Origin: Blasia pusilla | Taxonomy: Eukaryota | Direction of reading: 5' to 3' | Length of the DNA stretch: 64,000 nt | Assembly: GCA_050084515.1 (NCBI GenBank) | Contig: CM114271.1 | Coordinates: forward strand, 37,076,001 to 37,140,000 | Shown: positions 42,218 through 64,000 of the stretch, in pieces | Layout of the letters: every line of letters begins with the position of its first letter | Position numbering within the stretch: position 1 is the first letter of the stretch | Position numbers and translations under genes: made by a program | The notes under the pieces: model-generated | Told to the model about the DNA's origin: nothing | What the model saw: the letters and a program-made list of their open reading frames with translations, nothing else | Databases searched by the model: none

Positions 42218-44718
42218 GCGGAAAATACTTGCTCGAGGACTATAACGTCATTATCTTATAGAATAGATATGTCCTCCATAATGATCATAGAATTATTAAT
42301 AGGTTTTCCATCTTTAGGTACATATATATCCTCCTTAATAAAAATGTTATGTTATATTGGGAATATCCGTAATCCCCTCATGAGTCACGGGCCTACAAAC
42401 ATATCATAAAAATTTCATTGGAATATGCATAAAATAAGCTCATTGTGGATGGTTTCAAGGAGCCTTAGTTGTTTAGCGACCTCTCATCCGGCCACTCGCT
42501 CTCTAGGAGTTGGGACTCTATGTATGTTGCGCTTTTCTTGAGGACCATGAACATTCTTATAGAACTCACACCATGAACTGGTGTGAGTTCTTTAAGAATG
42601 TTCCCCGCGGGCCACATAGCACAAACTTGCCTTGGAACCTGGCTACAATCCGACGTTTTCTGGCCTTTACCACAACACCAGTTCATGGAATCAGACCGTG
42701 CTGCAAGAGTGATTGTTACATCCGGGGTCGAAGAAGTGGCACGCTCTAGGGGAATTTGGCGGTCACTTCAAGGAAGATACGTCAGCTCAGAAAGAGCTTA
42801 CTAACACTCCGAACTGCCACCATCGCTAACATAGCCAGCCAGCGTCTGTATCCACCGGAAAGCCTTCCATATCTACGATGTGGAAGAGAGCTTCGAATGC
42901 GCTCGCCTTCAGACGATGTTGTGTGCAGATCAGGATACATGAGGGGGAGACATGCAGTGATCAGATTCGTGGAGCCCAAAGTTACGTGATCAGGATTTGG
43001 GATCCATGAATTTGATCACTGCATGTCTGCACACTCTCGCAGAGTGCACAGACTGATACGAAAGAGAGACCTGAATCTAACCCTACTATTCTGATCACCA
43101 CTATCGCTGAAAGGCCCGCCCGTTGAATTTAGACTGTCCAATGGTCGAGTAACCTGTGCGTGTATGAGTTAGATGCACCGATCAGCCTTCATGGCCCGAG
43201 ACCTGTTTCCAATCTCCAGTGAATTAACCGCTACATGAATCGGGTTGGAACTGTGATATCGACAACCATAGTCATGATCACATCGACCTCTGCATTTACA
43301 GCCCTTGAAATTAGGGACGATTAGACGTGTGGGTGCGACAACCAAAAGAATGGCGCATCATTCCAGTTTACGATCACCGAACCTGCGCAGAGACGTCCAC
43401 TTCCAATCAATCAGCCATGATTCGATCTGAACCATGAATAACATATGACAAGTTCCAAACAAGGAGGAAAATGGTTCGATGCAAGATGATTCATAAGATT
43501 TTCATAGCGTTGGTTTAATTGGTCACCCGTCTAAAACTTCATAGTGATCGACGAATCGACACACCTTAAATGCTCACTCCTGGAAACGAGATTGAGCACC
43601 CCAGGAGTGCTCAATCTCGTATCCACGTATGGCCACCTGATGCACAATATTAGACAAATAGTTCAATCGAACCAAGAGCTTTCAGACCGGAAGTTTAATA
43701 CAGGTATGATCCCTTGATTACTAACACGTTTTATGCCCACGGATGAACTCGTCGCCCGTCCTCTATTGGAGATCACGTTCGTCTGCTCAAATTCACATCT
43801 CAAGGATGAACCCGTCATTCTTCCGCTCCAAAGTTGTATCACACTGCCTGAAACGCGTAGGGATTCCATGGAAAGCAAGCTGTACTTGGAGCGGACCGGA
43901 TGAGCTATACATGTAGGTGGTCAACTCGGTAAATGAGCGTCAACAGATCAATAATTGGAAATTTTCTCGGCTCAGATTGTCAGCAAATAGCAATGTGATA
44001 TTCCAGGTTGTGCCCTCACCAAAGCGAAAGCATCATAATGAGCTCATGAATGGTGCGAGGCTCCTCAAAGTGGTGAAGGAAGAATTAGTCAGCGACGCTC
44101 TCTTGGCATTATCAACCAACGCTTGCCAGCTGAGTGGTAATCCCTGAAGGAGCTCTGTAAGCGCAGCTCCCGATTCTGGAACAGGGTCTGACGACCAACA
44201 AATTGCACGACTGTCGGCGGATTGTGTAGACAAGATCTCTACGGGGAATAACCCTAGTTGATTATTGAACCATTACATGCTGTAAAACCATGTACATGAC
44301 ATCGAAAAGCTGTGTAATCCAAATTGCGTTGTCGAGCTTTGAGTTTTAATTGGGCCAGATTCACAATCACTCACGGGCACCGAGCATAAATTCAGCGCCG
44401 GCAACTGCATGTCCTCCACTTCGTTCATTGTCTTATAGGCGCACAATCGCCTGTAACTTCTAACGCAGAAAACTTTCAAGCTGCAAAATTGTATGTACAA
44501 GCACTGCCAGTGGAAATCCTCACCTAATCCGTCCACATCCATTTCAGACGATCTTGGGAAATAGATGATTCAACGAGCCATCCCTCAATCTAGGTCTAGC
44601 TTGCACAGAACCTCAACGCAAAGATCGAAGGGCAAATGCTCTGTAGTTCATCGAGTTAAATCGACCACTACAGCGAGATCAGAACTCTGACATGTAGTTG
44701 ATTGAGTTTGTCTCCTGC

Positions 44719-46335
44719 CTAGTATCCTAAAACCGATGATGGCAAAGATTCAAGATAGCCGATTGCTGATGCGTTGACCTTCCTGGCAAAGAGGTAGCAG
44801 GGAACCTTTCGTTTCTGATTATACATGCAGACCTGGGAAGCGGTTCGTGTCTTGGAAAACTGTGCTTCAAATGAAGTATCATGGTATGCGCCATCAACCT
44901 GGACTGACCTCTCTTGAATGTCATGGAACCACGCCTGTGTCAATTGATCCGAATTCAGCGCATGTGGTGATGTCCAATGAGGTTTGCTCCAATTCACGTA
45001 CATAATGGGCCAGGTGGATATACCCATCGGATCAACCAACCCTGCATTCACCATGGAAGAACGAAAGCGCGTTGAGACGATATTCGATTCGCGCACCTAA
45101 GCCACACAGATTTAAACTGTAATGGTGACAAACCCCGCTTCTATTCATGCTGGAGAAGATGCAGATGCATGAAGGAAGCTGAGTGCTGAGAAACAAGCGT
45201 AACGACATGGTAGTGCTTTAATATCCTTGAGTAGGCACAAAACTGTTCCATGCCACCATCAATCCAGCAGCAAGATTCGATTACCTTTTTCTTTCAGAGA
45301 TTGGAGACTATTTACTCCTCTAGATGACACAGTTTCAAAGGTGTGTGACAGGAGGGAGCGGAACATGCACCCAGTCAGTCAAATTCCATCCACCTTCATC
45401 GTTACTTCATCAAGAAAATGTACCTGGCTGCGTTGTTTCTTACCTAGCAGAGTCTGGATGTATTGTTCATCCGAGGCGCACCACAAAAAACAGTTTGCCT
45501 TGAACTTCTGGTACAGTATCGAATCCTCCAAAACGACGACGGCGTGACGCCGTTGCATAGCCATCCAGAGCTCTCCCTTCCTCAAGCTCTTCTTTGGAAA
45601 TTCCGGCATCGTTTCCCACTTCACGTAGTTTGTATGAGGGCGGAAAGACTCCACAAAAGACTGTTGAGAGTCCATCAGGAAATGATACGTGTATGGAAAC
45701 GAGCGAAGAGGAATGGTTGCCTCGCAGGCGTAGACAAACCAAGAATTGGAGGCGCCATGAAAAGGATCCAGGATGGAGTACGCCAGCAATCTGCGCATGG
45801 CATCCACAAGGTTGATGGAGTAGCGCTCGACAACGGCGCTCGGGATTTCGTGATTGTAAAAGAAGGATTCGGGTGGATAATGGTATCCCGGCGTAGCGTG
45901 CACGTAGATTGAGTACTGGCCTTTATGACCTTGAAAGAATCTGCGCCACAGAGGTTCGTGAGGCATGTGATCGCGGGTGATGAATAGAAAAGCTACCTTC
46001 GGCGTTGGAGTTGCAAGTCCAAGTTGATACAGTTCGTGCGCATGACCCGTGCGAGCCGCGCACTCGAGAACAGCGGATTCGTTCCACACCTTGAAGTCAA
46101 TCTGACAGCGCTCCGAGATGCTTCGTAGGAGGGTCGTTTCGTGAGGTCTCCACTGAAAGGCGGGGAGGGCTAAACGAGATGCTAGCGTTGAAAAAGAATT
46201 CGTGACCGAATCCATGCCTCCACTCAAGCTGTCGTTGAAGGTGGCAAGGTATGCTGAACAGAAGAGAACCAGTATCACAACGCCTGTCAGGATTAGCCAT
46301 GGGTTGTTCTTTACTCCGCTACCGTTAGGACTCAT
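44719..46335 (-). CDS. Core-2/I-branching beta-1,6-GlcNAc transferase-like (GT14-like/DUF266) type II membrane glycosyltransferase, 404 aa
   Basis: Exons 46335-45444 and 45041-44719 with a phase-1 GT-AG intron, 1215 nt in total; N-terminal TM helix, KVAFLFIT, LWRRFF, YSIYVH, SFVESF, RKGELW, DEQYIQTLL, YVNWS and CYLFARK. Confidence 0.92.
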
Positions 46336-48365
46336 GATTGCCTGATCAACAGATTGGCCCGGATTTCATCACCGCCCGCTGAACCTGAACTTTCAGAGTA
46401 CCTTGTACGCACGCCTCGATAAGGATCTCACGGCCGAAAAATCGTCTATCCTCTGCAAGAAGCGACGAGGAAGTGGCGATTTAGTGTTCATGAAATCTTC
46501 AGTTCTAGCTACCTCGAATTATAGCTTTCTGGACGGCTCAATAAAGACTCGCCACTGGATTGTAAAGAAACGTAGAGAGACAACAATTTGATCGAAACAA
46601 CTACAACGAAGATGATCAAAGGACCAATAAGCACAGAGAGAGAGAGAGAGAAACTCTACTCATTAAGTAGTGCATGTATTGATTAAGTAATGCCTGTCGT
46701 AGCTTTAGGACCATAGACCCCGCGCCTTGTTTCGACGGTGCACGGAGAGAGACATAATTGCAGATTTGCTTATGTGAAGCAGACAGAGAAAATCGTGGCA
46801 GCAACAGGTAAAATACGAGATCTAGCTACCTGGCTCTTCTCGATCTGCGGGTTTCCATTTCCTCTAGTTCTGACCTCTTTGTGAGTCAGGATCGGTGATG
46901 TACGTCATCCAACTCTTGCTCGTGACACAGCAACCTCCCTGAAGGAAGACTTGCGTCTGCTGTGAGAGGACCGTCTCGTGCTGGTCCCCTATGCAGGCCG
47001 GTATTCAGACTCGGATGTATTTATTTTTTTAGCCGGGAAATCTATCTCCTGTGGAATAACAAAGCGTTTTCCTCCACAGACATCCCCCTGTTATGACGGG
47101 CTCTGAATCGTGCAGGGTGACACAGAGATTCGCTCCACAGGCTTGAGGCTGTATCTTGCACACCATGGCGCCCTTCACACTATTGGGAGGAGCACCCGAC
47201 AGACAGTCCACATAAAGTTCTTAGGATACATCTGCGTGGTAACGAGTTTTCCTTCCATTTTCTAATGAAAGGAGGCGAGCCAATCAGTTTCTTGGATACT
47301 AAGCTCCTTCGCGTATTCCACCACGATCACCATACATTCTCCCGGGGATGTGGTAGATTTTCTGCGCCGCGGATGATTGTTGGAAGGTTGACCAGACCAA
47401 CCCGCAGCCCCGCGATCAGAGTATGACGGTATGACCAGTTCAGCGCTACTCATCTTACACCTACTACCAAGCTCCCTCGATTCATCTACGGACCGTGCCA
47501 TTGTTCTTTCTCCCTTCCTTCGCGCCACGGCCCGCTTTGCAATCGCCTCGGACATAGATGTTACCGTAATCCTGCGCCTCAAGCTTCGCTTCGCTCATGG
47601 GGTCAACGGTGAGGTGCCAACCTTCTTCCTTCGCGTCCACTCTGTTTTCTTTTCTACGGCTGCCGGAGATCTCGCTCTCGGAGGACCCTCCTGAGTCCTG
47701 TCACATGGCTTTACAGTGCACCTTCTCGTTATTTCAGGCTGGACGATCTCCCACCCTCCCGGAATCGTCCGCACCCACTCCAGATCGCGCGGCTGCGCTT
47801 GTCCCGTACTGCACGAACGGCACACAGTGATGCAAACGTGAGGGCGGATCGACGGACTTGCGCTTCGACGATCGTAACATGCGCGCGGTGACCACATCCA
47901 TCGCGGCCAATATAAATATATATATATACACTTTTATCGCTCGGATGATGAAGGCTTTCATGGGACTCTATGGTAAGTTGCCAATCGTGTTTGATGGAGT
48001 ACTGGCAAATAGGACAAGTGATTGGAGGAGTGTCACTAGAAAACCGTGTCTTCTCGTGATGTAAAGTGGTTTAGGACAATCTTCTAACTTCGCTAGTCCC
48101 ATGTCTAAGTGTGGCGTGGCATGGTTTACTCCAAAGGTCATTAAGTCCCGCTAGAGGGTTATCTCTTCCTTCGGCGAGTTGAGATTTGCCTCAAGGTGCT
48201 CCATGTATTGCAAAGCACAAATTCATGGAGTGAAAGGAGTAGTTTAATGCCTCGTGCCTCTTCATCCTCTCGTTAGTTAATCCCGAGGTCAAGATCCTGA
48301 CTTCTCAAGATCTATTTTGGGTAACAGATTAAAAATTTTATTAATATTTTACCTTTCACGGAGGG

Positions 48366-48430: not shown

Positions 48431-48822
48431 AGGTGGCATGTTTTGCATGAGCCTTTTGCACGAGTCTAACCGTGGTGCCTCTAACCCGAGGATGAATAGG
48501 CGCGAGGGTTTAATGAGGGGTGTATTATACGGGAAGGTAGTCATAATCATGGGTCAAACAAGAAAAGTCTTTGGTATGATCCATCAAAGTTAAAACTTAT
48601 ACTAGCTAGTGGTGAGATTAGGAAGGGCGTCAAAATCAACCGTGGGACTAACTCTAGGAGATGCGCGCATGTGTCTTGTGAATGGTCTTAGGTGAGAAAA
48701 CAATGTAGCTACTCGCGGGGACAAAGGCAAGGCAAGCAAGGTTTGAAACCTTGGAGCCAAGCGCCAAGTCAAGGACAAGAAGCAAGGAACACGTGATCTA
48801 TCAATATGGGCGAGAGACCATG

Positions 48823-49286
48823 TGTCGTGCGCGTACTTCCTTGAACGTGGATCTTATGTGTCGCAGAAGCTTGCATTCAACAGGTCAACCTCTTCTTACT
48901 GATCTACACCCAAACATATTCACATTAGCCACGGCTTTGGTCAACCAGCCTTGAACCTTTTGAGTCTTGGTCCAAGGCCATCCTTCAAGCTCAACTAATC
49001 TAGACGAGGTCATATACCGACATAATCTCTCACTCCCCAACACAGGCAAGTCCTTCAAGACTTGGTACAGACTTCATTGATAGTCTACCAAACTAAAATG
49101 ACGCTAGCGCATCTGGAGATCCCAACTACCAAACAGACCTCAAACAAGTCTTTAACCGAGACTCACTATTTGAGTCACGGGTCAAGGTCCAAAGTTGGTA
49201 TCCATAGTTGGCCCACTTGGACTTGGCTTTATTTTGAGCTACGGCCCCAGCTCGCCCTGCGGGCATTACACGGGTCTGATCGCGGG
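48823..49286 (-). mobile_element. LTR segment (minus orientation) related to the 61275-62299 LTR, interrupted at 49287
   Basis: TGTCGTGCGCGTACTTCCTTGAACG... aligns over roughly 250-300 bp with TGTCGTGCGCCTACTCTCCTTGAACG at 61275, with shared blocks CTTCAAGCTCAAC, CCAACAC.GGCAAGTC and AAGACTTGG.ACAGACTT. Confidence 0.75.
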
Positions 49287-51604
49287 TGTCACGACTGTTA
49301 GGATAGATCGGTGGGATCAAGCAGAGCGTCTGCACGAGTAGTGGAGGACAGACCTATGAGGTCGAGGATGACCTGTTGAGGCCCGGGGAAACGTGAGAGA
49401 GCAGGTTTCCCCTTTATTTCGGCTCATTTGGAGCCAAATAGAGAAACTTACTATTTCGGGTAAGTTTCCATATTAGAGATACTTTACTTTCCACTTTGGG
49501 AAGTGGCCCTTGACCCGCTACAGCAGGTCAAGAGCCAAGGAGGTGACCTGCAAGAATAGGTTATCGTTTAGAGGGCTTGGGAGAGGGAAGGGAGTATACC
49601 TCCAAGAGAGAGAGCTTGAGAGCTCATTCTCTCTTTGTTGAACCTCTTGGCATAAGGCGGCGGAGCTATGGTCCCTTGCCTTGTGAGTGTAACCCAAGCC
49701 TCTCATTAGGAGAGTGGGTTTGGTTTGACATGAGAGAGAGTGCACACCTTTGAGAGCTATGGTGTGAGATGGTGTAGAGAGAGATTGGATCTTACTTTAC
49801 AAAGAGAGAATGAATAAGTGAGAGAGCTTCATGGGGGCAGCTCATTGGGCACTCGCTGGTTTTGCAGGTTGGGGATCATATGCCCCGTTCAGCGGTTCAT
49901 GGGAGTGCTCACCGGAGCAAGAGCCGCTTACTTGTGATGTTTTCTTTGCCGATTTTTGTGTGGAAGAGTGGCGCGGGGAAGCACCGCCCAATTTTTGATA
50001 GGGTTTGAGTGTGGGGGCAGGTTTCCCCATGCTGGTTCTCTCGGGAGCACCATGTAGCTTGCTGATTTGTGTTCTCATATGTTTTACATTTTCATTGGGA
50101 GAAATCAGCGCAGAAGCGCTGCCGAATTATGTGTAGGAGAAAGAGACATTTGGCTTAATGACAGTCCCCGTAAATTTTTACTACAATGTTCGAGTCCAAA
50201 TATTTTTTGATGCTCTTGTAGATCGTGAAGTTGTGCACGTTGTGCAACAAACAATGCACAATTTGGAGTAGTGAGCAAAAAGTTATGATCAATCTTGCAA
50301 AATTGCCATTGCTAGGCGATTTTTAGGGTTAAATTGTTCAAACCCTAAGCCGCCGCCGCCGCCGGCCGTCGCCGTCATAGTCACCATCAACGGTCCGACG
50401 TTGACCATCAACCGTCATCGGTCCACCGTCAACCGTCACCGTCACCGATCGGCCGTCACCATCGACGGTCAACCATCACCGTCAACAGTCCACCGTCCGT
50501 TGTCCACCCTTTGGTTGCCATTGCCACCATTACAAAGTGGAGGGTCTTCCATGACGTTCGTTGATTCTCTAACTTGCGTTGCCACCACGTACTTTGTTTT
50601 GGCCACCACTGTCATCGCAGTTTTGTCATCAACCAATGATGGCAGATGATCTTCGGTTATGGTGTTTGAGTTTTGATTTTATTCTTCTATGTTGTGATTG
50701 GTAGCCGCTCGATGACGATCGAGTACCGTGCCGTGACGCCCGTAGCCGCAATGTGCCGCCGATTGCTGCGCCGTGCCGCTCGTGGCCGCACCGCACCGTC
50801 TCGATCGCGGAACCGCTCCTTCACTAAGGAGCAGAGAGTGAGAAATTTCTGATTGAGGAGGGTATGCCGCCGAGTGTCGTGCTGTTTGTAGCCGTTCCGT
50901 GCGGCCAGTGCCACACCGGACCGCTCGACCTGCACCGCACATCGAGGAGGTTGAGCAGCGTCAGTACAAGAGGCATACGACTTGCTAATTCGAGGAGTTG
51001 TCTTCACGACCGAGTGGGGGTCGAGATTTGCAATTGCTGAGGAGCGACATCGACATGTGTTCAGGTTACCCATTCTGGTCCTTTATCCCGCACGTGTGGG
51101 GGATTCTCGGATTTGGGTAGTTTATTTGGGGATATTTGTTGTGTGGATGCTGAGAGCATCATTCATGTATGTGGTTCAGGGGACATAAATCTGTGTGGGA
51201 TGTCCGGAGTTGAGGGTAGGTTGTCGATGAGATGATAGTCTGGTCGATTTTCCGCACCACGCCGCGTGTTGCCGCATGTTACACGTCTCGGGGAGGGAGA
51301 GTGTAGATTTAGTGCCGCATGTTTGGGATGAGTGATTGAGTGATTACTCACGAGGTTGAGAGTGATTAGGTGAGAGGGGCACGAGGGTCATCACGGTGTC
51401 CGTTTGGGACTTTGAGAGGCGAGGTGGTGAACCCGAGAGTAGCTCTAGAGGTTTGACGCGGAGTGGCGCGAGGTTCCGAGGGTCTCCATGTAAGGGACCA
51501 CCTCGACCTCCTTTTGTGTCATCGTCAGAAAAGGGGAGGGTGTAGAGGAGTTTGTGAGCACATTGCTACACATTGTGAGTGGTCCTACCAGTTGGGCGTA
51601 CGAG

Positions 51605-53083
51605 ATGGACAACCGGGGTAGAGGACCGCGTAGGTTTTCTGGTGCATTATGCACGATTGAGTTGCACGATTTCATAGTAGAGTTTAGGAGTTGGTGTGAC
51701 TCCCAGGGGGCCAGAAACTCTAGAGAGTTTAACCCGTTTACAGCATGGAATGGTATGTTCCAGCATTTAGAGGGGATGCCCATGGACGATTACCATGAGT
51801 TCTCCCACATATATGGCCAGGAGATTGAGGCATGGTGACTCTACTATGACCCACACTTTGTGTCATGGATGGAGCCATTCCTAGATGAGGAGGAGGAGGA
51901 GTTAGGAGAGGCTAGTTCCTCTTCCACTAGTGATGTTTTAGGAGGGGTCACTCACACTAGAGCAGTTGAACCATCTAGTCGGGTTCATCCCAGGTTCAAC
52001 CCCGTGGTTGAGTTCTTCGCTAAGTTGAGGGCCAGCTACTAAGGGGTACCGATGGAGAAGTTGCGGAGCATCCACGACTTCCTGAGGCGCCCGGATGAGA
52101 GTTTACATGAGGCTTACACTCGCTTGCGTCGGTTGATCAACATCACTCAAGGGGTGACGGAGGCTCAGGCTATCCACTCATGATACGCGATGCTGGACCG
52201 GACCCTGCAGACACGGGTGCGGGAGGGGGTGCTTCTTATGAACACCTCCCCTATATTGAGAGATTTTTTTAGGACCGCCAAGAACATTGAGCCCAACATG
52301 GCGGAGGAGAGCGTAGCCACCATGGGTTCTGGGCGAGAGCAGTCACGATTGGTTGCACCACCTGTGCAGCAACGTGGACTTCGAGATAGGTCGACTGTGG
52401 CACCACGAGCTCAGGGAGGATACCAGGTGGCTGTGCCACAGAGACCTACGCCTTCATATGCGGCTCAGCAGCAGACGCCTACTATTACTTGTTGGTCATG
52501 TGGTGGAGCCCATCATCAGCACGATTGCACTTGTCAGGGTCATGGACGTGTGCCTCAGCATGGAGGAGGAGATGGTGCTGCACTAGGAGGTTATCAATGT
52601 GACTATTGTCAGAGGTATGGTCATACACGCGCCAGGTGTTTCAGTCTACATCATGAGTTACGTACGGACCGAGGGCCATAGAGGGCACCAGAGCGAGTAG
52701 CCGGTCGGGGTGGGCCTAGAGATCGTGCACCAGGTGGTCCCGTTGGGGGACGAGGAGCTAAAGTTGCCCGACAGGGTGGTGGAGCTGCCCGTGGAGGAGG
52801 TAGAGTACCACCACCTAGACGCGCCAAGGGAGACGACGGACGTGAGGCTGGGATGGCTGCTCACATACAACAGCTACAGGAGCAGATTGTCGTTATGGCA
52901 TTGAACTTACTCGATGCCGGATTTGTGGCATCGACATCATATGATGCAGCCAGAGATATGGAGGATCCTGGTTGGATGTGCCGGGTTGCCCAGATGGAGG
53001 CCGCCGCAGTTGTGATGCGTGGAGCAGCCGCAGAGTTGGATCCACAGCGAGGGGAAGCCAGAAAACATACTAGGCTTCCTTAG
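51605..53083 (+). pseudogene. Gag-like region with two zinc knuckles
   Basis: One frame from the ATG at 51605 with internal stops; LRRPDESLHEAYTRLRRL, CWSCGGAHHQHDC, CDYCQRYGHTRARC, then an Arg/Gly-rich stretch. Confidence 0.75.
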
Positions 53084-53559
53084 TCTTTCACGTTGTCTAA
53101 AGCGATGAGGACGCCATCGATGGGTCCTCATCAAAGTTCGTGGAAAGTTGGTGATGTTGTTGGTGTGCACGCACGGAGGGCGATGGGAGAAGCGAGTGCG
53201 ACGAATCCTATTGTTGATGCTCATGAGTGCATGTGTCGAGCACGTTGTTGGGGACGGCCATTGTTGTGTACTGCACTCCTTTATTTTCTGCTTCCGATGT
53301 TATGACGTTGGGGGGTACGCCCGCTGAGGCTTTCAGCTGGCCGCTTCATTATGTGAGCGCGGAGTTCGAGTTCCTACATCACGTTCAGAGGTGATTGCAT
53401 AGGAGGTGATGGACTTGCCCTTGGAGCGGATGCTTGGGCCATCCATGTCAGATTCATGGCAAGCTACGGCTTCCTGGATGGCGGAGATGCCCGCTAGACC
53501 CGCGATAGAGCATGCGATGGCTTCTCTTGGTGTTGTGTTGCTGGATAACCAAGGAGAGG

Positions 53560-53950
53560 TCTTCCAATTGGTGAGTCCCGGAGATAGAGCTTTTAGTCCG
53601 CAGCGCGTCTTGTTGGATTCACGAGCGCAACCCTTGATGTTGGGGAAAGCGTCATTGAGAGGATACGATGAATGACGCTTTCCATTTCGGATACAAAAGC
53701 CAATGTGGAGCGTTGTCCATTTCGGATACAAACATCCTTGGATGGAGCCAGTACCACACAATATATCACCCGACATGAGGTCGTGGTGAGGATTCTCCCG
53801 GGACATCCTACAGATGAGTCCGTGGTGCGAGCCAAGGCGATAGTGATTGATATAGAGTCCTACGACGTCTTGGTTGGTGGAGCAGTGTTATACCCGATGG
53901 GGTTTTCCGTGGATTACTGGGAGGATTCAGCGTCCTACAGACCAGGATGA
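53560..53950 (+). pseudogene. Retropepsin-like aspartic protease
   Basis: RVLLDSRAQPLMLG (degenerate DSG active site) and a downstream YDVLVGG motif, with one frameshift between them. Confidence 0.7.
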
Positions 53951-54334
53951 CAGTCAGGTGATGGGCGCCTTAGCTCATTACCTATTCGATTCATATGTGC
54001 AGTGATCGAGCGACGGCCAGGAGAGGTGGCGACCTTAGCAGCATTTAGCAGTGCCATCACTTGGCCTAGTGATTTGATTGAGGGACATGTCCATGCAAAG
54101 GATACTCCCGTTCCTGACATTTCTATGGAGAGGATTATTATGGTAGCCGCATCATTCCGTGGAGGATAGGTGCCATTGTGGGGCTCCACTGAGGAGCTTC
54201 GACGATTGGCAGATGAGCACATGCAGACCGCGTGGAGCGAGGCATTTGCACCGGAGCGTGAACCCGAGGTAGCAGGGAGTGCTACGATGACACCCTTGGA
54301 TACCACACCCATTGTGTGGTGTATCACGGAGGAG

Positions 54335-55280
54335 GGTATTCGAGTGTTAGATCTCTTTGGAGGGATTAGCACCGGGTTAGCTGTTGTTTTGCAGGCATGA
54401 GTGCGAGTGCAGCAGTACCTATATGTGGAGAGTGATGATGTTGCGAGGCGCGTCTCACTACGACATATGGCACAGTTACGCCTATGTTTTCGAGAATTAT
54501 TGTCTACGTCTACGGTACAGGAGTACCAGAGTTCCCTACCAAGGGATATTTCATTGCTCGGGGCGCAGGACTTAGAGCGGGTAGGGACCATTGATTTGGT
54601 CATTGTCGGTTGGCCATGACAGGGCCCATCGAGTGTTGGACGAGGCAGTGGGTTGGCTGACACTCGGTCCATGTTGTTTTGGGAGATGTTGAGGGTCTTA
54701 CGGTAGTTGCAGGAGCATCAGTCTCGTTCTCCAGCCTACATTCTAAAGAATGTGCCAATCTTAGCAGACTTCAGGTCACGGGTGGTGACAAGTGCTTATC
54801 AGGTGCGTGCCCGGATCGGCCCAACAATATTCTTGGATGCGTCAAGTGTAGGTTCTAGAGCCCATCGCCCGCGTCTATGGTGGACCAAATTGGTGCCCAA
54901 TGCGGTGTTACGCAGGGCGTATGCGAGAGTGGAGCGCCCCTCCCATTTGTTAGTGGATTCCATTCTGGATCCAGGTCGTCGATTACAGGCAGTGAGGCAC
55001 GATGATCGACCACCGTTGACTGTGGTCAACAGGGTAGGCAAGTCGCGGGCAACCTTGCCCACGTTTGTGAGTTTTCCCGCTTCCTATGCATATAAGGAGG
55101 CCGGTCCTGGCTTGGTTTGGAATGACCAAGTTCAGCGGTTGGTGGAGCCCGACGTCGATGAGAGAGAGCAAGCGATGGGATTTCCCACAGGAGTGACGGC
55201 AATACCGTCAGTGTCAGAGGCATCACGACGCCATGTCTTGGGTCAAGAGATGGACCTGAACTGGTTGACATGGATCCTCA
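54335..55280 (+). pseudogene. C5 cytosine DNA methyltransferase domain, DNMT3-like, inside the retroelement polyprotein
   Basis: Motif I IRVLDLFGGISTGL, II YLYVE, III RDI, IV IDLVIVGWP*QG (catalytic Cys codon now TGA at 54617), VI YILKNV, VIII RAHRPRLWWTKL, IX EREQAMGFP, X RRHVLGQEMDL; all in one frame and in the DNMT3 motif order. Confidence 0.9.
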
Positions 55281-55639
55281 GCTTGGGAGTGGCTGAGCAG
55301 CGCCGTATGAGATCGGGACAAATCACAACGGTTGCGTTGGTGAGCCCCATGCCTACCGAGACGGTGGAGGCAGTGGCTGGGGGTGAGACCCGAGGAAATC
55401 TACACACTATGGGAGATCGGGAGAGACACCCTTGGACTTCTTGGGATGTTTTGCATGTATGCTTGGAGATGATAGCCACAGCATCGAGCGTGGTTCCGGG
55501 CACTGCACGTGGAGGAGATTAGAGTTTGCAGTTGGCTACAGGAGAGCGGCTGAGTAATGTTGTTCGAGACGGGATTGCACCATGGCAACCACCGATACCC
55601 GCGTCGGAGAGTCCTACCGTAGTCACGATGGAGACTTGG

Positions 55640-57065
55640 GAGCCAGATATGGGCCCTAAGTTGACAGGAGGAGAGCGGCGCCGGATACATCCGTTCGTCA
55701 GGAGTTATAGGAGCTGCTTTGCGTTTGGCATGGAGGATTTGGGTACGCTCAAAGGACCGGGGATCCGCATTGAGTTGTCGAATGATACGCCGATCTTCCG
55801 ACGACCCTACAGGTACAGTGATATGGAGAGGGCTCTGATTCAGAGTAGGAGCCACGACTTGGTCGGAGCTGGACTAGTGGAGATGTCGCATGGGGAGTAT
55901 GCATCTGCCATTGTCATGCCCGCCAAGAAGGATGTGCATGGCAACTGGACGGATAGGCAGATGTGTGGGGATTACCGACCTATCAATCAGTAGACGAAGT
56001 TCGATAAGTATGCCATGCCCACCCCTGAGGAGATATTTGATACAATTGGTCACGCAAAGGTCTTCAGTTCATTGGATTTGCGAGCCGGATATCATCAGCT
56101 ACCTATTAGATTGGAGGACAAGAAAAAGACAACATTTTGGGGCATCGATCCTCACGGGAAGGATTATTTGTACCAGTGGCGGTTCTTACCATTTCGGTTA
56201 AAGAACGCCCCGGCTGAGTTTCACAGGGTCATAGATAGGATCTTGGCTGGTTTGGATTTTGCTAGGTGTTATATTGATGACATCATAGTCTTTAGCGCCA
56301 CGGTTGAGGAGCATGAGCGACATCTAGAGGAGGTGTTTCGACAATTGCAATTACATGGGTTGAAGCTACATCCAGGCAAGTGCAAGTTCTTCTACAACCA
56401 AATTGAGTACTTGGGTCATACGATATATCCAAGGGGCCTTGGTGTTCAGCAGACGAAGGTAGAGGCTATCCCACGCATTCCACGCCCTACAGATGTGAGC
56501 CGTGTTTTCGCATTCATGGGATTGGCGAACTTCTATCAGTGGTACATCAAGGGATTTAATTTGATTGCGAAGCCGCTAACCTTGCTGACCAAGATGGATC
56601 ACGAGTGGCACTGGGGGCATGAGCATGAGCAAGCATTTCAGTTGCTCAAGGACAAGTTGACGTCTGCGCCCATCTTGAGGAGACCAATCAGGGGGCATCC
56701 TTTCCACTTGCACACAGATTGGAGCATGTTGGGGCTTGGAGCGGTGCTCACCCAGCATGATGATGAGGGTAGAGAGTTTGTGGTGGCTTATGCTAGCCTC
56801 TCGAACGACGGTGCAGAGGCAAAGTACAACTCGTTTGAGGATGAGTGATTGGCTGCAGTGTGGGCTGTCGCGCATTTCAAGTGTTACTTATTCGAAAATC
56901 CCTTTACCATCATCACTGATTATCAACCACTGAAGTGGCTGATGGAGTCCAACAAGATTACATGGAAGTTTGCGAGATGGGCTCTGTTGTTGCAAGAGTA
57001 TATTTTCACGTGGTACATAGATCTGGGACGCTCAACCAAGATGCAGATGGGTTGAGTCGTAACCC
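55640..57065 (+). pseudogene. Ty3/gypsy reverse transcriptase and RNase H
   Basis: PIFRRPYRYS, MCGDYRPIN, FSSLDLRAGYHQL, LPFRLKNAPAEF, CYIDDII, LHPGKC, LHTDWSMLGLGAVL, VVAYAS, IITDYQPLKWL and RWALLLQEY. Confidence 0.95.
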
Positions 57066-57438
57066 ATGCCCGAGTCAGTGAGATGCGACTGGAGCTCGAT
57101 GGCATGGAGAGAGTGATGAGGAGTCAGTGCCAGGATGGCACGCGTCAGCCTATTTAGGCATGTTGGCTATGGAGAGCCAGAGTGTGGAGACTTCGATGGC
57201 GAGGTCTAGTGGAGAGTCCTTGGATCCCGAGGCCAATGCGGAGACAACAGGTGGCCGAGATATTCATGCTGATGGAGTAGTCTTGGAGTACCTTCGTATT
57301 GGCAGCGTTGCGAGCACCGTGGATGTTAGAGAGCGGGATCGGATCCTACAGTGGGCCAGAAGGTTCCGTTGGGAGGGGACACATGTTTTGAGGGTTTGGG
57401 AGAATGGTAGAGTACGCGTAGTGCCGCATCCTCCGTAG

Positions 57439-57516
57439 AGAGCACGACTACTGCAGCATGGTCACGACGAGTTAGGTCACTTTGGGGTGAAGCAGACGTA
57501 CAGCTTGCTCCTAGGC
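57439..57516 (+). pseudogene. Integrase HHCC domain, N-terminal half (outer element)
   Basis: LLQHGHDELGHFGVKQTYSLLLG; continues at 62301 with MHTDVQQFVAMCMMC. Confidence 0.85.
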
Positions 57517-60500
57517 AATCTGTGCGCACGCCACCAACCATCCAGGAATAGTCAGGAAGTCGTGTAGGCCGTCGCAGACTCTCTCGTCGGCACAAACCTC
57601 CTCAACTTGCTAAACCGATCAACTATCACAAGTATAGCGTTGTATCCCTCAGATTCTGGAAGACTCGTAATGAAATCCATGCTAATGCTTTGCAAGGGTT
57701 CCTCCGGGATTGGCAAAGGATGAAGTAAACCTTGTTTCTTCGCATAAGACACGCAGTGATTAAGCTTAAGGAGTCACGATGTTTTCACATATTGAGCAAC
57801 ATCTTCCTTCATGTTGGGCTAGAAGAACCTCTTAGACAAAACAGCAAGAGTGGATTTCTCTCCTTTGTGTCCCGCCAAAGGTCCATCATGACATTCCACA
57901 AACACCTTGGTCCGTAGCTTGCCTTGGCCTACATAGATCCTGCTCTGCTTAAACCTTAGCAAGCCATGTCTCAAACTCAGATTGGCCACCTTCTCGCCCG
58001 CTTTAACTTCCCAAGGTACTCCTCGCTTGCTCATCCTTCATGTATCCTTCACTTAATCCTTCTTTCCAGGTCTGTTTGATTAGGGAACATTGCTCTCAAC
58101 ACTTGTGTCGTCGATGGCATGTGTTCATCCCTGCGACTTAACGCATCTGGAATGACATTGTCTTTCCCCGGCTTGTGGATTAGCTCCACATTCATCAACG
58201 CCAAGGTATCATGCCACCGAAGTTGTTTTGGCGTCACGCGATCCTGGGTCTCAAAAGACTTGAGTGATATGTTATCGGTGAATACTCGAGTCTTGTGAAG
58301 TCCCAAATAGTGACGCCACTTCCTCAAGCAATGAACCACCGCAAACAACTCTTTCTCATGAGTAGGCCATCTCCTTTCGGTGTCGGTAAGCTTCTTGCTT
58401 TTGTATGCTACAGGTCTCCCTTTTTGCACCAACATTCCTGCAATCGCGAAATCACTAGCATCCGTGTGCACCTCGAACGGTTGTTCAAACTCCGGCAGCT
58501 TCAGAACTGGTTCCTGCGAGAGGATCTCTTTGACTCGATTGAACGCTTTATCCACTTCCTCGGTCCATGTAGTATTGGAAAACTTTGCGGTCCAATCCGT
58601 GAGAGGTTTCACTATGCCCGAAAAGTTCTTCACGTATGTCCGTAAAATCGACACTCGATGAACCTTCTCATCCCCTTCACCGTGGAAGGCGGTTCCCATT
58701 CGGCAATCGCGCTTACCTTTTCCATGTCTGGACTCACTCCATCCGCACTAACCACATGCCCCAAGAACTTGATCTTTGTCAAACCGAACTCACTCTTATC
58801 CGCATTCGCATACAGCTTGTTTGCCCTAAGTTTCTCAAACATCGTTTTCAAATGTCGAGCGTGCTGCTCTAGTGTTTTCGAATAGATGAGTATGTCATCT
58901 ATATAGATGATCACAAACTCATCCGTCTCCTTGTGAAAGATGGAGTTCATCAAAGTGGTGAACGTCGGAGGCGCATTACAAAGACCAAAAGGCATTACTA
59001 CAAACTCAAACGAACCGTATCTCGTCCTACAGGTAGTCTTCTCTACATCCGCTTCGGCAATCCGAATCTGATAATATCCTGATTTCAGGTCAATCCGGCT
59101 GAAATATTTGGCACCTGACAATCGATCAAAGAGGTCATCCATCCTTGGTAGAGGATAGTTATTCCTTACCGTCACTTTATTCAGCGCCCGATAATCAACA
59201 CAGAGTCTCAACTTCCCATCCTTCTTCTTGACAAAGAGGACGGGCGCCCCATAAGGTGACTTGCTTGTTCGGATGTAACCCCTCTCTAGGAGTTCACCCA
59301 ATTGTTTCTTCAACTCAGCAAGTTCCTCTTGATTCAACCTATATGGTGCCTTTGAAGGTGGTTGAGATCCTGGTATCACCTCAATCTTATGATCAACCGC
59401 CCTATGTGGTGGCAACTCAGTCGGAAGCTCCTTAGTCAACACATCTTCAAAATTCTTTCACAACTCTCTTGAGTGTTTCAGGGATCCCTCTTGAAGCTGA
59501 GTTCTGATCTCTACATCTCGCGCTTGCATCATCCTCTACTCGTCTCATCAAGCAAAGGAATCCTTCCTCTAACTCGGCCAAACTTGTCCTCGTGATGGCG
59601 TTCACCAACTCCGTCTTTCTAGGCACCTCACGAACCAATCTGACGTCCGTCCGTTTGCCGTTAACCAAGACGCTCAACATCAAAGGTCTCCGCCTCAGTT
59701 CCACCTCATACGCATCCAAAAACGTGTTCCCCAAGACTCCGTCGATTCCGTCCATCTCGCAAACTGTAAAATTCTCCTTCAACTCAAATACTCCGCATCT
59801 CACAACTAGCCCTAAAACCAGATCTGATGTCTGGTGGGACTTGCCTCCCGCGAATCCTACCCTAATGGGTTCATCCGCCTTGGTGGTTGGCAATCCCAAA
59901 GTTTTTACGATTCTCGGACTCAAGAATGAGTGCAAAGCACCTGTATCAACGAGCAACATCACATCGGGATAAGCGATCTTGGATCCTAGGTAAACTAAAT
60001 TGGGCGTTCTCTTGGTGACTTGTAGAGATGTATCTAGATCTCCCTCCGATAAATGCTTAGCGGCAAACGCAATCATACTCGGTTTACTAACCTTGGGCCT
60101 AACACATTCCTTAGCCATATGCCCGGGTTCGCCACAATTGTAGCAAATCACTTTGGCATGCATTGACTTCGTAAACGGCGGACCCTTTGGCTTCGCGTTG
60201 AGTACCACTCGTTTTGCCGCTGGGGCGAGAGACCCTCCGTGGTCGCGCTCACCCCATTCCAAACCCTCTTGGATGTCCCTTTGTTCTTTCAGAACTTAGA
60301 AAACTTTTTGTCTCAAAGGGTTTGGTGTTGGACTTCATCGTCCCCAATCCGCTCGGCTAGTCTCAAGAGATACGCGCGACGCCTCTCGGGATGTGAGGCA
60401 TACAAAGAGAGCCTTCTCGGCACTCGGTTTGAGCCCACTTAGGAAGATCACCTTTTAGTATGTTCATCCGTGGAAAGTGCACTCATGAGCGCACTAAACT

Positions 60501-61122
60501 CTCGCACATAAGCGCCAAGTGATCCACTGGCGCAACCTCACCACCTCCATGCCATCGCGGTACTCTGATATTCGGAGTGAATCGGTTCCCAATCAACTCC
60601 TTGAAATCTTCCCAACTCAACGTTTTCCCACAACCTAGATGTTCTTTGCGGTGAGCCGCCCACCAATGGAGAGCGTGATCCTTCGAAACGTGACGCCTGA
60701 TCACCTTGTCTTGTTCATCGCTTTTGCGCTTTGAAATAGAGTTCGAGTTCCGTTAGAAACTCACTCACTTTCCGAGAACGCCCCATTCCTGTGAATGGCG
60801 TTGGCAAATTAGTCTTACAAAGCTTCTTGCCAGAACTAGAGGCTCCATTTGACTTGAATTCCGATATCACCTTGCTCTGTTCAACCATTTGGTCCGCCAT
60901 CACCTTCATCAATCCCATCATTTGGGTATAAAAGGCCGGATCGTTTAAGTTTGGACCCGAAGGTCCCGCGGAAAGATTTTCGGTTGGAACATCCTCATGT
61001 CTGGGACTCGGCACTTCGGGAGTCGCAAATTCCACCTCCGGCTCTCGGTCCGTCATTGATTCGTCTCTTGGCTTCTTTGCTTTGACTCGCGGTTTCCTCG
61101 GTTCTTCGCCCTTGGTCGCCAT
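57507..61122 (-). pseudogene. gag-pol of the nested element
   Basis: ORF pieces 61122-60715, 60704-60483, 60262-59447, 59442-58630, 58699-58049, 58034-57819 and 57752-57552, separated by frameshifts and stops. Confidence 0.9.
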
Positions 61123-61259
61123 TTGCGAGTCGTCGCCTTTTCTCAGATCTCCTCCTCGCCTCTTGCGTTCCTCCTCGGCATCGCGGTCTTCCGGCTACCT
61201 TGAGTTCTCCCCAAACGTCCCGATCTTCAACGACCCCAAGTTCACGCTCATCAAGGAAT

Positions 61260-61272
61260 GGCTTTGATACCA
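61260..61272 (-). promoter_or_regulatory. Primer-binding site, tRNA-iMet type
   Basis: TGGTATCAAAGCC on the - strand, 2 nt after the LTR end ...GCGCACGACA. Confidence 0.85.
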
Positions 61273-61274
61273 CG

Positions 61275-62299
61275 TGTCGTGCGCCTACTCTCCTTGAACG
61301 TTAATCTTGTTTGTTGCGGAAGCGTGCGTTCAGTAGGTCACGCTCTCAACGCTGATCTGCATCCAAACACGCACTTTGGTTAGTCGGGTCTTGGATCAAT
61401 CAGCGGGATTACTTTCCAAGTTCTCGTCTCGGACTCTCTCTTCAAGCTCAACCTTCCTAGTTTCGCGGTTTCCAACACGGGCAAGTCTCGAAAGACTTGG
61501 GACAGACTTTCTGGTCGATTCAGGAACCTGAAACGGCGTTTCGCGCTAGCGGTTCCTTCGTCCGATGAACATCCAATGAGTTCCTCACCAAGACTCGCAC
61601 GAAGTGAATCTTGGGTTGGAATCCAAGTGTGGCGTACAAAGTCCACTCCCTTGGATCAGGTTTGGGTTTCGGGTTTCCGCGCCAAACTCCCGTTTCATCC
61701 CGTGCCTCTGAAATGTCGTTTGGCGCCCAAAGTGGGGTTTTGTTTCCCGAGACATCTCAGAGAAGGTACTCCCCTTACTAGTACTTCTGGGGATCTCCGG
61801 GGCCCCTACATTTAGGAAAGACACAGGCCTCTCCATTGGCCCTCAACCCGATTGCTCTCTGAATCGTTTTCGGCCAATATCTCAGCCTGTACTTATGCGT
61901 TTGCTGAGATCTTTGGTGCGTTGGAAGCGTCTTAAGATCAGCTTTCCAACGCGCTCTTACTTGTTCCAAACGCATATCGGAGCTCAACGTTATGGTCCCA
62001 AACACAGTCAGATTCTCCCAAACGCTAGTCGTGTTCCAAACTGATTCTTACCTCTTTGGCAACCACCTCCCAAGACTCAACTCATCTCAAGTCTCGGCTC
62101 GCGTTTGGTCTAGGTTTCCTGGTCGCGACCACTAACGCATGAAATGCACAACTCTGTTCTGCGTTTTGTCTCTTAGACTTTTCCAAGAGAGTCTTCCAAA
62201 CGCCTCTCCAAAGCGCAAACCTCGCAACGTGAGTTCCTTTGAGTTCTGAAGTTTCGCTTGGCGCGTATTTGGTGTTGTTTGGTTATGAGGGTCGCGACA
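61275..62299 (-). repeat. 5' LTR of the nested element (1025 bp)
   Basis: The - strand reads TGTCGCGACC...GCGCACGACA; bounded by the PBS on one side and the resumed outer integrase frame on the other. Confidence 0.88.
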
Positions 62300-63467
62300 C
62301 ATGCACACTGACGTTCAGCAGTTTGTTGCCATGTGCATGATGTGTGATCGAGTCTGAGCATCATTCAATGCTCCGACTCCACAGTTGCATCCATTATCGA
62401 TCATGGGCCTAGGGTATAGATGGAATTTGGATTTTGCAGGACCTTTGCCTTTGACGGAGCGTCACAATCGTTATGTGTTGGTGATGGTCGAGCACTTCTT
62501 GAAGTGGATCGAGTTGGTTGCATTTCCTGACAAAGCGAGTGAGGGAGTAGCTTATGCCTTCCTTGACAGAGTGTTGAGTCATTATGGCACACCGGCTGAG
62601 GTGTTGACAGACCATGGTACCGAGTTTCGCGGTGAGTTCCAGGCCTTGTGTGATCAGGCGCTGATCAATCACCGCACGACTTTGTGAGATCATCCCGAGG
62701 TGGATGGATTAGCATAGAGAGTTGTGCAGACGGTGAAGAGGGGTCTACACAAGTATGGCTTGCAGAGAGGTCAACTAGGAGATTGGGACCTCCAGTTTCC
62801 GTGGTTGGTGATGGGATACAGATTCAGCAGGCATGCATCCTTAGCATCTTTTTCATCGTACTTGCTACTTTATGGCCGAGAGCCAGATTTACCAATGGCC
62901 ATTTTTCAAGATGCTGGTGAGGTGCTGGACCGTGATGACCCAGATGTATGGATGTGAGCATGTTCTCAGAGGGCTGAGTTGTTCCGGAGAGTGATGTCAA
63001 TGGCGTTCAAGAACTTGGCGATTGCGCATCATTGGAATACGTTGAGGTATGTGACTTTTCGGAGTGGTGGTTATCGACCAACTATCTGGAGGTTTCATCA
63101 GGGAGATTATGTCTACTTGCAGCAGACGGCATCGACGATATTGGATGTGACTACACGGCGCACTATCCTGAGAGTGCGTGACGTTTTGCCATCAAATGTT
63201 CTCTTGCTGGAGGGACGCGATGGTATGGTATGGAAGGACCATGTGCGTAATTGTGCGTCATGTCACCTTCCTAACATTGATGGTACAGTAGATCCGAGCT
63301 CAGTAGTAGCTCTTGCAGGCTTCCGTTGTATGTTGTGTGGTTCTGCTCGTGGTGCGGCCACGATGCTAGTCTGTGATGGATGTTCACGAGGTTGGCATAT
63401 GGCATGTGTGACGCCACCTCTCATTAGGGTTCCTCGGGGACGATGGATGTGTTTTAGATGTACATAG
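62300..63467 (+). pseudogene. Integrase core and C-terminus with PHD finger (outer element)
   Basis: CMMC, WNLDFAGP, VLTDHGTEF, DGLA*RVVQTVK (catalytic Glu codon now TAG), RFHQGDYVYL; C4HC3 PHD at 63327-63461: CMLC...VCDGCSRGWHMAC...WMCFRC. Confidence 0.92.
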
Positions 63468-63783
63468 CGGAGATACTAGGTAGGTTTTGAGTCCGACTTT
63501 TTCTATGACATGGATGACAGGAAGGCACCTAACGATGGGGCCACATGAGCACCCGGCCTTTCTGCTCTTAGCGTCCTAGAGATGTATGTTGTGGTAGGTA
63601 GGGATAGATGGCTATCTGGAGTTAGAGGAACCTAACCACCAGTTAGGGGGACGATTGGAGATATTTTGGTACTTCTTGCCTCTGTGTATGGATGCCATGA
63701 GTTAGCATGGGATTGTGTGTGTTTATGAGTGTGTGTTCGATGACAGCAATGTATGTTGTGAAGCGATGTGTATGCGCACGACA

Positions 63784-64000
63784 TGGGCCCAATGCAGATC
63801 TGACGTAAGCCAGTGTGGGCTTAGGGCGGGCTACAAGCGGGCCGATTCTTTCCTGGCTCCCTTAATCTGAGCCCTAGGGTTTGGGAAAAATCCGAGCAAA
63901 GGACCCATTGGGCATATCCGTCCCATGGACGGTCATATCCACTTCCATGCAACCGTGGTCCAATTAAACCCCAAAGCTAACTTCTCAATCCATCACATGC
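63784..64000. repeat. GGGCC-rich repeat, possibly the continuation of the LTR interrupted at 49287
   Basis: Composition resembles 49240-49286; GGACCCATTGGGCATAT...ATGCAACC also matches the reverse complement of ~32185-32227. Confidence 0.4.

Follow-up and report, generated by a model that had tools for sequence, protein, structure and literature searches.

Organization of the element and its C-terminal PHD finger

The analysed window, i.e., the whole stretch of 64,000 nucleotides from Blasia pusilla, contains at 49287-63783 a copy of a Ty3/gypsy element that belongs to a very abundant family and carries both a DNMT3-type domain and a PHD finger. The copy is bordered by 4-bp target-site duplications (TSDs; 49283-49286 on the left and 63784-63787 on the right, with a 1-base difference at a CpG), begins with a 513-bp 5' terminal repeat, here called B (49287-49799, starting with TG), and terminates with a 130-bp 3' repeat, A (63654-63783, ending with CA), immediately 5' of which lies a polypurine tract-like run (63645-63653). 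Between the repeats, all on the plus strand, are a broken gag region (51400-52660, its start being approximate) with two zinc knuckles (52478-52660), a broken aspartic protease region (53500-54000; Pfam aspartyl protease models match relatives), the C5 cytosine methyltransferase domain (DNMT; 54335-55285), which is in frame with the reverse transcriptase (RT), and RT with RNase H (55817-57010; PF00078, PF17917, PF17919). They are followed by the N-terminal zinc-binding part of the integrase (57420-57514), the catalytic core, which contains stops (62291-62957; PF00665 and PF17921 on relatives), the C-terminal integrase helix and small beta-barrel of the AlphaFold model with a conserved Cys-x2-Cys-His behind them (62958-63260), and the C4HC3 PHD finger with its stop codon (63327-63467), which is the C-terminus of the polyprotein. 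The integrase is split by a nested fragment of a different Ty3/gypsy family (57515-62290, 4.8 kb, minus strand) comprising gag, protease, RT and RNase H and lying outside the element proper; an integrase and a repeat pair were looked for within this fragment and neither was found. Since the sequence of the element picks up again on the far side of the fragment, and since other copies keep the same order, the DNMT and the PHD belong to one element. The copy itself is dead: three stops fall within its DNMT, one of them exactly at the codon of the catalytic motif IV Cys, and further stops and frameshifts are scattered elsewhere in the element; the original prediction leaves this decay unmentioned.

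The element is nested in another repeat, its flanks (48700-49286 and from 63784 onward) matching adjoining segments of L219. A Core-2/I-branching glycosyltransferase domain (PF02485) is encoded by an expressed host gene (44500-47100, minus strand, two read-supported introns) that lies approximately 2 kb off the repeat cluster, and the window also contains an ABC1 kinase-like exon (1924-2409, plus strand) and Helitron-like pieces of a PIF1 helicase (36915-38813, minus strand). The family of the nested Ty3 fragment accounts for approximately 4% of the sampled genome sequence, and its transcription is weak.

The original prediction held that a canonical C4HC3 PHD finger ends the integrase, at the place where chromoviruses carry a chromodomain, and that the same element bears a DNMT; both statements are borne out. 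With its first Cys codon at 63327, the finger occupies 63327-63464 within a plus-strand frame (62958-63464) closed by the stop at 63465-63467, and the spacing is C-x2-C-x11-C-x2-C-x4-H-x2-C-x14-C-x2-C, with a Trp two residues ahead of the seventh Cys. PF00628 matches over its whole profile (E=1.6e-10, 41 bits, cut-off 24). The integrase frame has the finger as its final domain, behind the core (62291-62900) and the small beta-barrel, which we take, from known integrase anatomy, to be the SH3-like integrase C-terminal domain. In the AlphaFold model of the integrase C-terminal region (long helix, small beta-barrel and finger; mean pLDDT 83.6, pTM 0.49), the modelled finger superposes on solved PHDs, including H3-bound ones, with 0.5-1.6 A across 45-52 residues. 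All eight ligands are intact in 17/23 and 4/8 other copies (two samples), and the C4HC3 pattern is present in 177/188 relatives. A chromodomain after the integrase was not found, as only PHD models match the frames of the element. A likeness of the barrel plus PHD to Tudor-PHD proteins (PHF1, UHRF1; Foldseek) was discarded at an rmsd above 9 A. Approximately 20 residues upstream of the finger, the Cys-x2-Cys-His motif (63250-63266) is nearly invariant clade-wide, with Cys102 and His103 invariant among 44 aligned sequences, and could form an extra zinc site.

The DNMT is a non-permuted domain inside Pol, in which motifs I, IV, VI, VIII and X were identified. PF00145 matches the DNMT of a sister copy with E=1.1e-10, and the best solved matches of a relative's DNMT are DNMT3A/B/C, by which we class the domain of the element as probably DNMT3-type. 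The motif IV Cys is retained in 13/14 and 16/18 copies of the family.

Abundance, ends and expression of the family in Blasia pusilla

The searched genome comprises 390 Mb in 26 contigs, eight of them large and a ninth smaller. Sampling of 40 evenly spaced stretches of 7 kb gave a coverage by the family of 15.9% (bootstrap 8-25%), which equals approximately 6,000 full-length copies; the search returned 13,196 integrase-PHD and 12,250 DNMT candidates, these being candidate counts distinct from copy numbers. The order gag-PR-DNMT-RT-RH-INT-PHD is kept, whole or partial, in 17 of 19 other copies selected from 150 hits by their long integrase frames, everything upstream of RT or integrase being missing from the remaining two. 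Among 20 copies chosen on their 5' DNA, a DNMT is present in 15 and the PHD is reached in 11, of which 10 carry both domains and one, the lone PHD copy without DNMT, represents a large deletion. Three copies (L061, L066, L215) that had been taken for DNMT-less were rejected as such, their DNMT being present and frame-broken. A second divergent integrase-PHD family, sought with a Calypogeia query, was not recovered: among the 86 scored of 20,731 candidates only hits of 54-58% appeared, several of them at known copies. The nearest named relatives of the family come from Calypogeia and Riccia (85-90% in the integrase).

Full copies have the arrangement B(513)...ORF...A(130)-B-A, with a TG start, a CA end and 4-bp duplications; hence, the final B-A is missing from the copy in the window. 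Two further copies with matching TSDs (L066 and L069) likewise end without the last B-A, and we infer that in the window copy it was probably lost by recombination between two A repeats. Among the other copies with both ends within reach, the TSD is exact in 20/29 (13/18 and 7/11), has one mismatch in six and is tandem or unmatched in three. Insertion is of the DDE type and duplicates 4 bp, and no target motif was seen in the insertion flanks. A 13-nt stretch within B (49625-49637) is complementary to the bases that follow B (49800-49812), with 12 or 13 of 13 positions paired in 40/45 copies, and is a candidate for self-priming. The split repeats look like a circularly permuted LTR cut within the repeat (49287-49799 and 63654-63783; copies L012-L050), and the inner A-B joint, which RNA reads span, forms a short palindrome (CA-NN-TG). 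Tested against a small repeat library, the flanks show no excess of other repeats (9/34 vs. 98/310), nor is their general repeat content significantly raised (26/51 vs. 148/360, p=0.23). Older copies of the same family, however, are overrepresented in the flanks (17/51 vs. 50/360, p=0.002; about 13-14/48 without tandem ends), an excess that survival bias can also give.

The paired repeats of 13 copies diverge by K=0.010-0.053, and therefore the family spread fairly recently. Pairwise dN/dS, calculated on copies chosen on 5' DNA (9-15 per region), is 0.45 for gag, 0.69 for protease, 0.40 for DNMT, 0.75 for the linker, 0.43 for RT, 0.37 for RNase H, 0.29 for the integrase core and 0.41 for PHD; between hosts it is 0.14 for PHD and 0.12 for RT, with dS close to saturation. 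An earlier DNMT value of 0.67 was discarded as a product of frame noise and of choosing copies by integrase. DNMT and PHD were thus under purifying selection, about as constrained as RT, while the lineages were active. Three RNA runs (one study, same-species label) cover the entire element in the sense orientation, the strand being inferred from host-gene introns, with depths of 34-77x for DNMT, 130-161x for integrase-PHD and 14-48x for the neighbouring host gene. The majority of these reads are 85-95% like the window copy and derive from other copies, and per-copy expression of the family is very low. CpG depletion in the copies is mild (0.74-0.89 observed/expected). Decay between paired repeats affects CG (36/347) and CHG (34/267) alike, with CHH at 153/3508, which is as expected from ordinary host silencing; hence, CpG depletion was dropped as a possible trace of the element's own enzyme.

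Distribution of DNMT and PHD among relatives

The co-occurrence of PHD and DNMT across related families, which the original prediction proposed as a test, also held. A clade profile, built from the same hit set as the polyproteins it scored, detects DNMT in 79/80 integrase-PHD polyproteins that exceed 1,376 residues in length, as opposed to 23/80 that Pfam flags as methyltransferases. Because the length filter favours DNMT carriers, we also examined 80 metagenome loci recovered with integrase-core motifs, 28 of which gave no verdict owing to short length or truncation. DNMT is present in 48 of the 52 informative loci, before RT in 36 (including L099, whose RT is deleted) and between RNase H and integrase in 12; 43 of the 48 reach the PHD, four leave the contig and one is interrupted. 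The four informative loci without DNMT comprise a clean case (L113), a deletion (L103), a truncated locus (L084) and a decayed one (L133). Likewise, P0307, a protease-to-PHD polyprotein of 2,092 residues (PR-RT-RH-INT-PHD), and P0109 have no DNMT. The PHD is retained after DNMT loss in P0109/P0307 and L113, and probably in P0248 and P0258. A clean DNMT-positive, PHD-negative lineage was not found among the relatives examined, and the three polyproteins without a PHD (P0246, P0255 and P0178) have degraded or frame-shifted tails. The PHD can thus persist alone, and we regard the co-occurrence as one inherited state and not as repeated independent pairing.

Elements with the DNMT upstream of RT occur in Calypogeia, Marchantia, Sphagnum and Klebsormidium, with integrase-only hits adding Riccia, Coleochaete and Closterium; those with the DNMT in the middle position occur in Haematococcus, Pleodorina, Tetrabaena, Volvox and Chlamydomonas eustigma, and in Scenedesmus, Monoraphidium, Chromochloris, Hariotina and Tetradesmus. 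In the chlorophyte-type clade, into which 102/206 integrases fall, the DNMT stands directly before integrase-PHD. The two types separate in both the integrase tree and the DNMT tree. When RT, RNase H and integrase are combined in one tree, the middle type forms a group (support 0.96) placed among the upstream types, and the DNMT-less P0109, P0248 and L113 fall inside this group. As these are FastTree trees, midpoint-rooted or rooted on one partial outgroup, the order of events in the clade is tentative. The DNMT-PHD pairing is real, old and common to mosses, liverworts and green algae.

Several peculiarities were observed among the relatives. In one subgroup (L086:4737-5410; P0015-P0027), a single in-frame stop approximately 115-150 codons past the DNMT makes the DNMT part of the gag-protease ORF, and RT-integrase-PHD comes after the stop, possibly to be reached by read-through, and in several relatives the ORF ends 120-150 residues past the DNMT. 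Among chlorophyte-type DNMTs (P0062-P0138), motif IV reads Glu-Cys in 52/91 and motif VI is frequently Glu-Asn-Thr or Glu-Asn-Ala; in a few volvocine DNMTs (Pleodorina, Volvox) motif IV is unrecognisable and seemingly lost. Five chlorophyte-type polyproteins (P0068, P0069, P0104, P0121, P0226) carry an added G-patch tag (PF01585), and the close relative P0261 (RT-RH-INT-PHD, 1043 aa), labelled at NCBI as an uncultured cyanobacterium, probably represents eukaryotic DNA in a bin.

On sequence comparison, we place the element in the KnitGypsy-Dnmt3 lineage, as its land-plant member. KnitGypsy-Dnmt3 was described from Klebsormidium nitens by de Mendoza et al. 2018 (PMC5890265), with a DNMT3-type domain within Gypsy Pol and selection on the DNMT, both as here, and a figure legend gives its repeats as 'the same as that of a DIRS retrotransposon', with which the B...A-B-A arrangement agrees when compared by that legend. 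That paper confines the element to the K. nitens lineage, whereas we find relatives in liverworts, Sphagnum, Coleochaete and chlorophytes, and the word PHD is absent from its text and supplements, figures aside (PMC5890265). The family has the Gypsy order PR-RT-RH-INT with a DDE integrase, and its identity to the K. nitens elements is 39% in the DNMT and 52-57% in the integrase, both falling in the same clade in FastTree trees. The K. nitens proteins KFL_000540020 (DNMT) and KFL_000540030 (RT-RH-INT) match the family (integrase clade support 0.93), and KFL_015960010 and KFL_005000010 are integrase-PHD proteins.

PHD-bearing LTR elements have long been known; REM1 of Chlamydomonas, which we set beside this clade by description, is reportedly one of them. 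Chlamydomonas Gypsy-7a_cRei, as here, has a PHD in a green-lineage Gypsy Gag-Pol, which has been proposed to steer insertion, and shows a 2.6-fold intergenic excess (PMC9940879); its description lists no DNMT and its legend puts the PHD before the integrase, and we liken the two by description alone. Other PHD-bearing retrotransposons are widely reported, in descriptions that leave DNMT unmentioned (PMC6673714, PMC9940879). Chromoviruses likewise have a reader at the integrase C-terminus, theirs being a chromodomain, and Phygy, a non-chromodomain Ty3 lineage of bryophytes, prefers NCGN targets (PMC6317226), unlike the present family, in which none of the 20 exact TSDs is NCGN. Writer-plus-reader LTR elements are also already known, with other domains, from a 2026 preprint: the EpiLTRs of Cymbomonas and Euglena combine a cytosine methyltransferase with a chromatin reader, as here, but their DNMT is sister to DNMT4, a DAM is added and the reader is a chromodomain (bioRxiv 10.64898/2026.05.21.726589). 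No DAM or chromo match was found in the frames and relatives scanned here. The preprint lists the streptophyte Gypsy-DNMT3 as a separate acquisition, a PHD being unmentioned in that listing (bioRxiv 10.64898/2026.05.21.726589). In the mainly open literature, we found no description of a Gypsy element that combines DNMT3 with a PHD, nor of the lineage in land plants; the chlorophyte-to-bryophyte range, the two DNMT positions and a family making up a sixth of its host genome are likewise unreported there.

Possible histone reading and modes of action of the two domains

Following the third Cys of the finger, an Asp, presumably the Arg2-pocket residue, is present in 167/177 relatives and in 33/35 copies of the family, and the Gly-Trp-His and Pro-x-Gly-x-Trp segments common to H3 readers are kept in the family PHD. 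The position two residues before the PHD His, which we take to be that of the cage Trp, is occupied by Gly in 165/177, and the cage Trp is found in 0/171 clade-placed PHDs. In PHDs that read K4me3, an invariant Trp forms part of an aromatic cage (PMC3241642, PMC5415848), and no such cage is found in the family PHD. K4me0-reading PHDs have acidic residues before Cys1 (PMC3241642) or, alternatively, an acidic wall ahead of the first strand (PMC5415848). In the chlorophyte-type clade, acidic residues occur before Cys1 in 86/128 and at the wall positions in 90/128 PHDs (median charge -4); among the 15 PHDs nearest the family the corresponding counts are 2/15 and 0/15 (median charge +2), and the finger in the window has a net charge of +6. 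Hence, of the K4me0-reader features, the family PHD lacks the acidic hallmarks and shows the Arg2-pocket Asp and kinship with solved readers, its best sequence and fold matches being KDM5 PHD1, KAT6A/DPF PHD2, BAZ2, ATXR5, BHC80 and UHRF1. Judged by these residues and matches, the PHD of the clade probably resembles readers of unmodified H3 rather than of K4me3; this predicted assignment is fair for the clade and weakest for the Blasia pusilla family, because its 15 nearest PHDs lack the acidic hallmarks and are basic. A predicted complex of the PHD with residues 1-30 of the host H3 reached 0.33 against a mark of 0.34, peptides being outside the validated range of the tool, and was counted neither for nor against binding.

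We give a probability of roughly 0.5 to the reading that, in this family of the KnitGypsy-Dnmt3 lineage, the DNMT and the PHD act separately and at different steps. Retroelement polyproteins are cleaved by their own protease. Such cleavage would leave the PHD on the integrase, with which it would thus travel, tethering the integration complex to nucleosomes and avoiding H3K4me3; the PHD would probably read the first H3 residues weakly, with DNA contact helping in the basic subclade. The DNMT would be packaged and would methylate either the cDNA of the element itself or the newly inserted copy, and it would do so without steering by the PHD. Self-methylation of cDNA has been proposed for retrotransposon DNMTs (PMC5890265), and double-stranded cDNA in the particle would be the simplest substrate, requiring no histone reader. 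Separate action would be favoured by the PHD-only polyproteins, nested among DNMT carriers, by the two positions of the DNMT and by the relatives whose ORF ends past the DNMT, and the intergenic excess of Gypsy-7a would agree with a tether. The absence of a clean DNMT-only lineage counts against it, as it would be expected if the DNMT depended to some extent on the PHD; so do the scarcity of acidic residues in the 15 nearest PHDs, the flanks without an excess of other repeats, the host-like decay between paired repeats and the yeast result described below.

In animal DNMT3, the PHD-like ADD module senses unmethylated H3K4. By analogy, the PHD might sense unmethylated H3K4 and recruit or activate the DNMT3 as ADD does, so that insertions and their flanks become self-methylated. 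We consider such coupling rather unlikely, even though the near-universal co-retention (79/80 and 48/52) and the lack of a clean DNMT-only lineage speak for it, as does the chlorophyte-type clade, where the DNMT directly precedes integrase-PHD and the PHDs are acidic. Moreover, an external reader would be useful, since land-plant and algal DNMT3s have no ADD (PMC12344493). The ADD of DNMT3A/DNMT3L, classed as an unmodified-K4 reader (PMC3241642), offers the apparent parallel of a DNMT3 catalytic domain and a cage-less PHD-like finger in one gene product; ADD, however, adjoins the catalytic domain, whereas here a canonical PHD ends the integrase approximately 1,100 residues downstream of the DNMT. 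The ADD-like parallel drawn in the original prediction is weak here, since RT and RNase H intervene and the PHD sits on the integrase; the acidic K4me0 residues are absent in the 15 nearest PHDs. Coupling is further opposed by the retention of the PHD after DNMT loss and by the wide occurrence of PHD-bearing retrotransposons described without mention of DNMT (PMC6673714, PMC9940879). In addition, no de novo methylation was obtained when the Klebsormidium DNMT was assayed in yeast, an outcome that the authors deem inconclusive (PMC5890265). Of the self-contained epigenetic module originally envisaged, the co-occurrence, the selection on both domains and the likeness to unmodified-H3 readers stand, and the persistence of the PHD beyond the DNMT and the descent within a single clade speak against it.

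Possibly, although we doubt it, the PHD of the land-plant subclade no longer reads histones. Its ligand would then be a nucleic acid or a different protein (target DNA, the ends of the cDNA or the integrase multimer), and it would be kept for the mechanics of integration, perhaps because of the unusual cut made within the repeat. The positive charge, the loss of the acidic hallmarks, the flanks that are not enriched in other repeats and the persisting purifying selection would agree with this, as would BAZ2A, in which neutralisation of the acidic patch lowered H3 binding 17-fold (PMC5415848); the Asp after Cys3 and the Gly-Trp-His and Pro-x-Gly-x-Trp segments, kept as in H3 readers, and the fold match of the modelled finger to H3-bound PHDs suggest otherwise. 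A DNMT that does not write in vivo, but has RNA or cDNA as its target for binding or modification or is packaged as a structural passenger, leaving the PHD as an ordinary tether, appears quite improbable: the yeast result, the mild CpG depletion and the Glu-Cys or unrecognisable motif IV of chlorophyte-type and volvocine domains point that way, but upstream-type domains keep Pro-Cys in motif IV (30/36) and motif VI (33/36), DNMT dN/dS equals that of RT, and the related, DIRS-borne SymbioDIRS DNMT3 domains methylate CG (PMC5890265). Beyond separate action, we can only speculate, with little expectation of being right, that this Ty3 clade has carried a DNMT3 with an H3K4me0-type reader since before the chlorophyte-streptophyte split, jointly choosing silent chromatin and writing methylation, and that in Blasia pusilla the enzyme encoded by the element is a real source of de novo methylation which builds heterochromatin for later copies to insert into.

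Why retrotransposons retain DNA methyltransferases has been a question since 2018, and it persists in part because experiments on the known hosts are difficult. The range of the lineage may have been overlooked because Pfam tags so few of its polyproteins (23/80) as methyltransferases, and thousands of element-borne DNMT3 copies can skew counts of methyltransferase genes in bryophytes. The clade offers natural controls, with the DNMT before RT, before the integrase or lost, and with acidic or basic PHDs. Moreover, the lineage occurs in Marchantia polymorpha, for which histone and methylation maps as well as genetics are available; there, the gene models Mp_4g09160 and Mp_8g17980 contain the DNMT, and Mp_7g09570 contains the DNMT together with remnants of the PHD.
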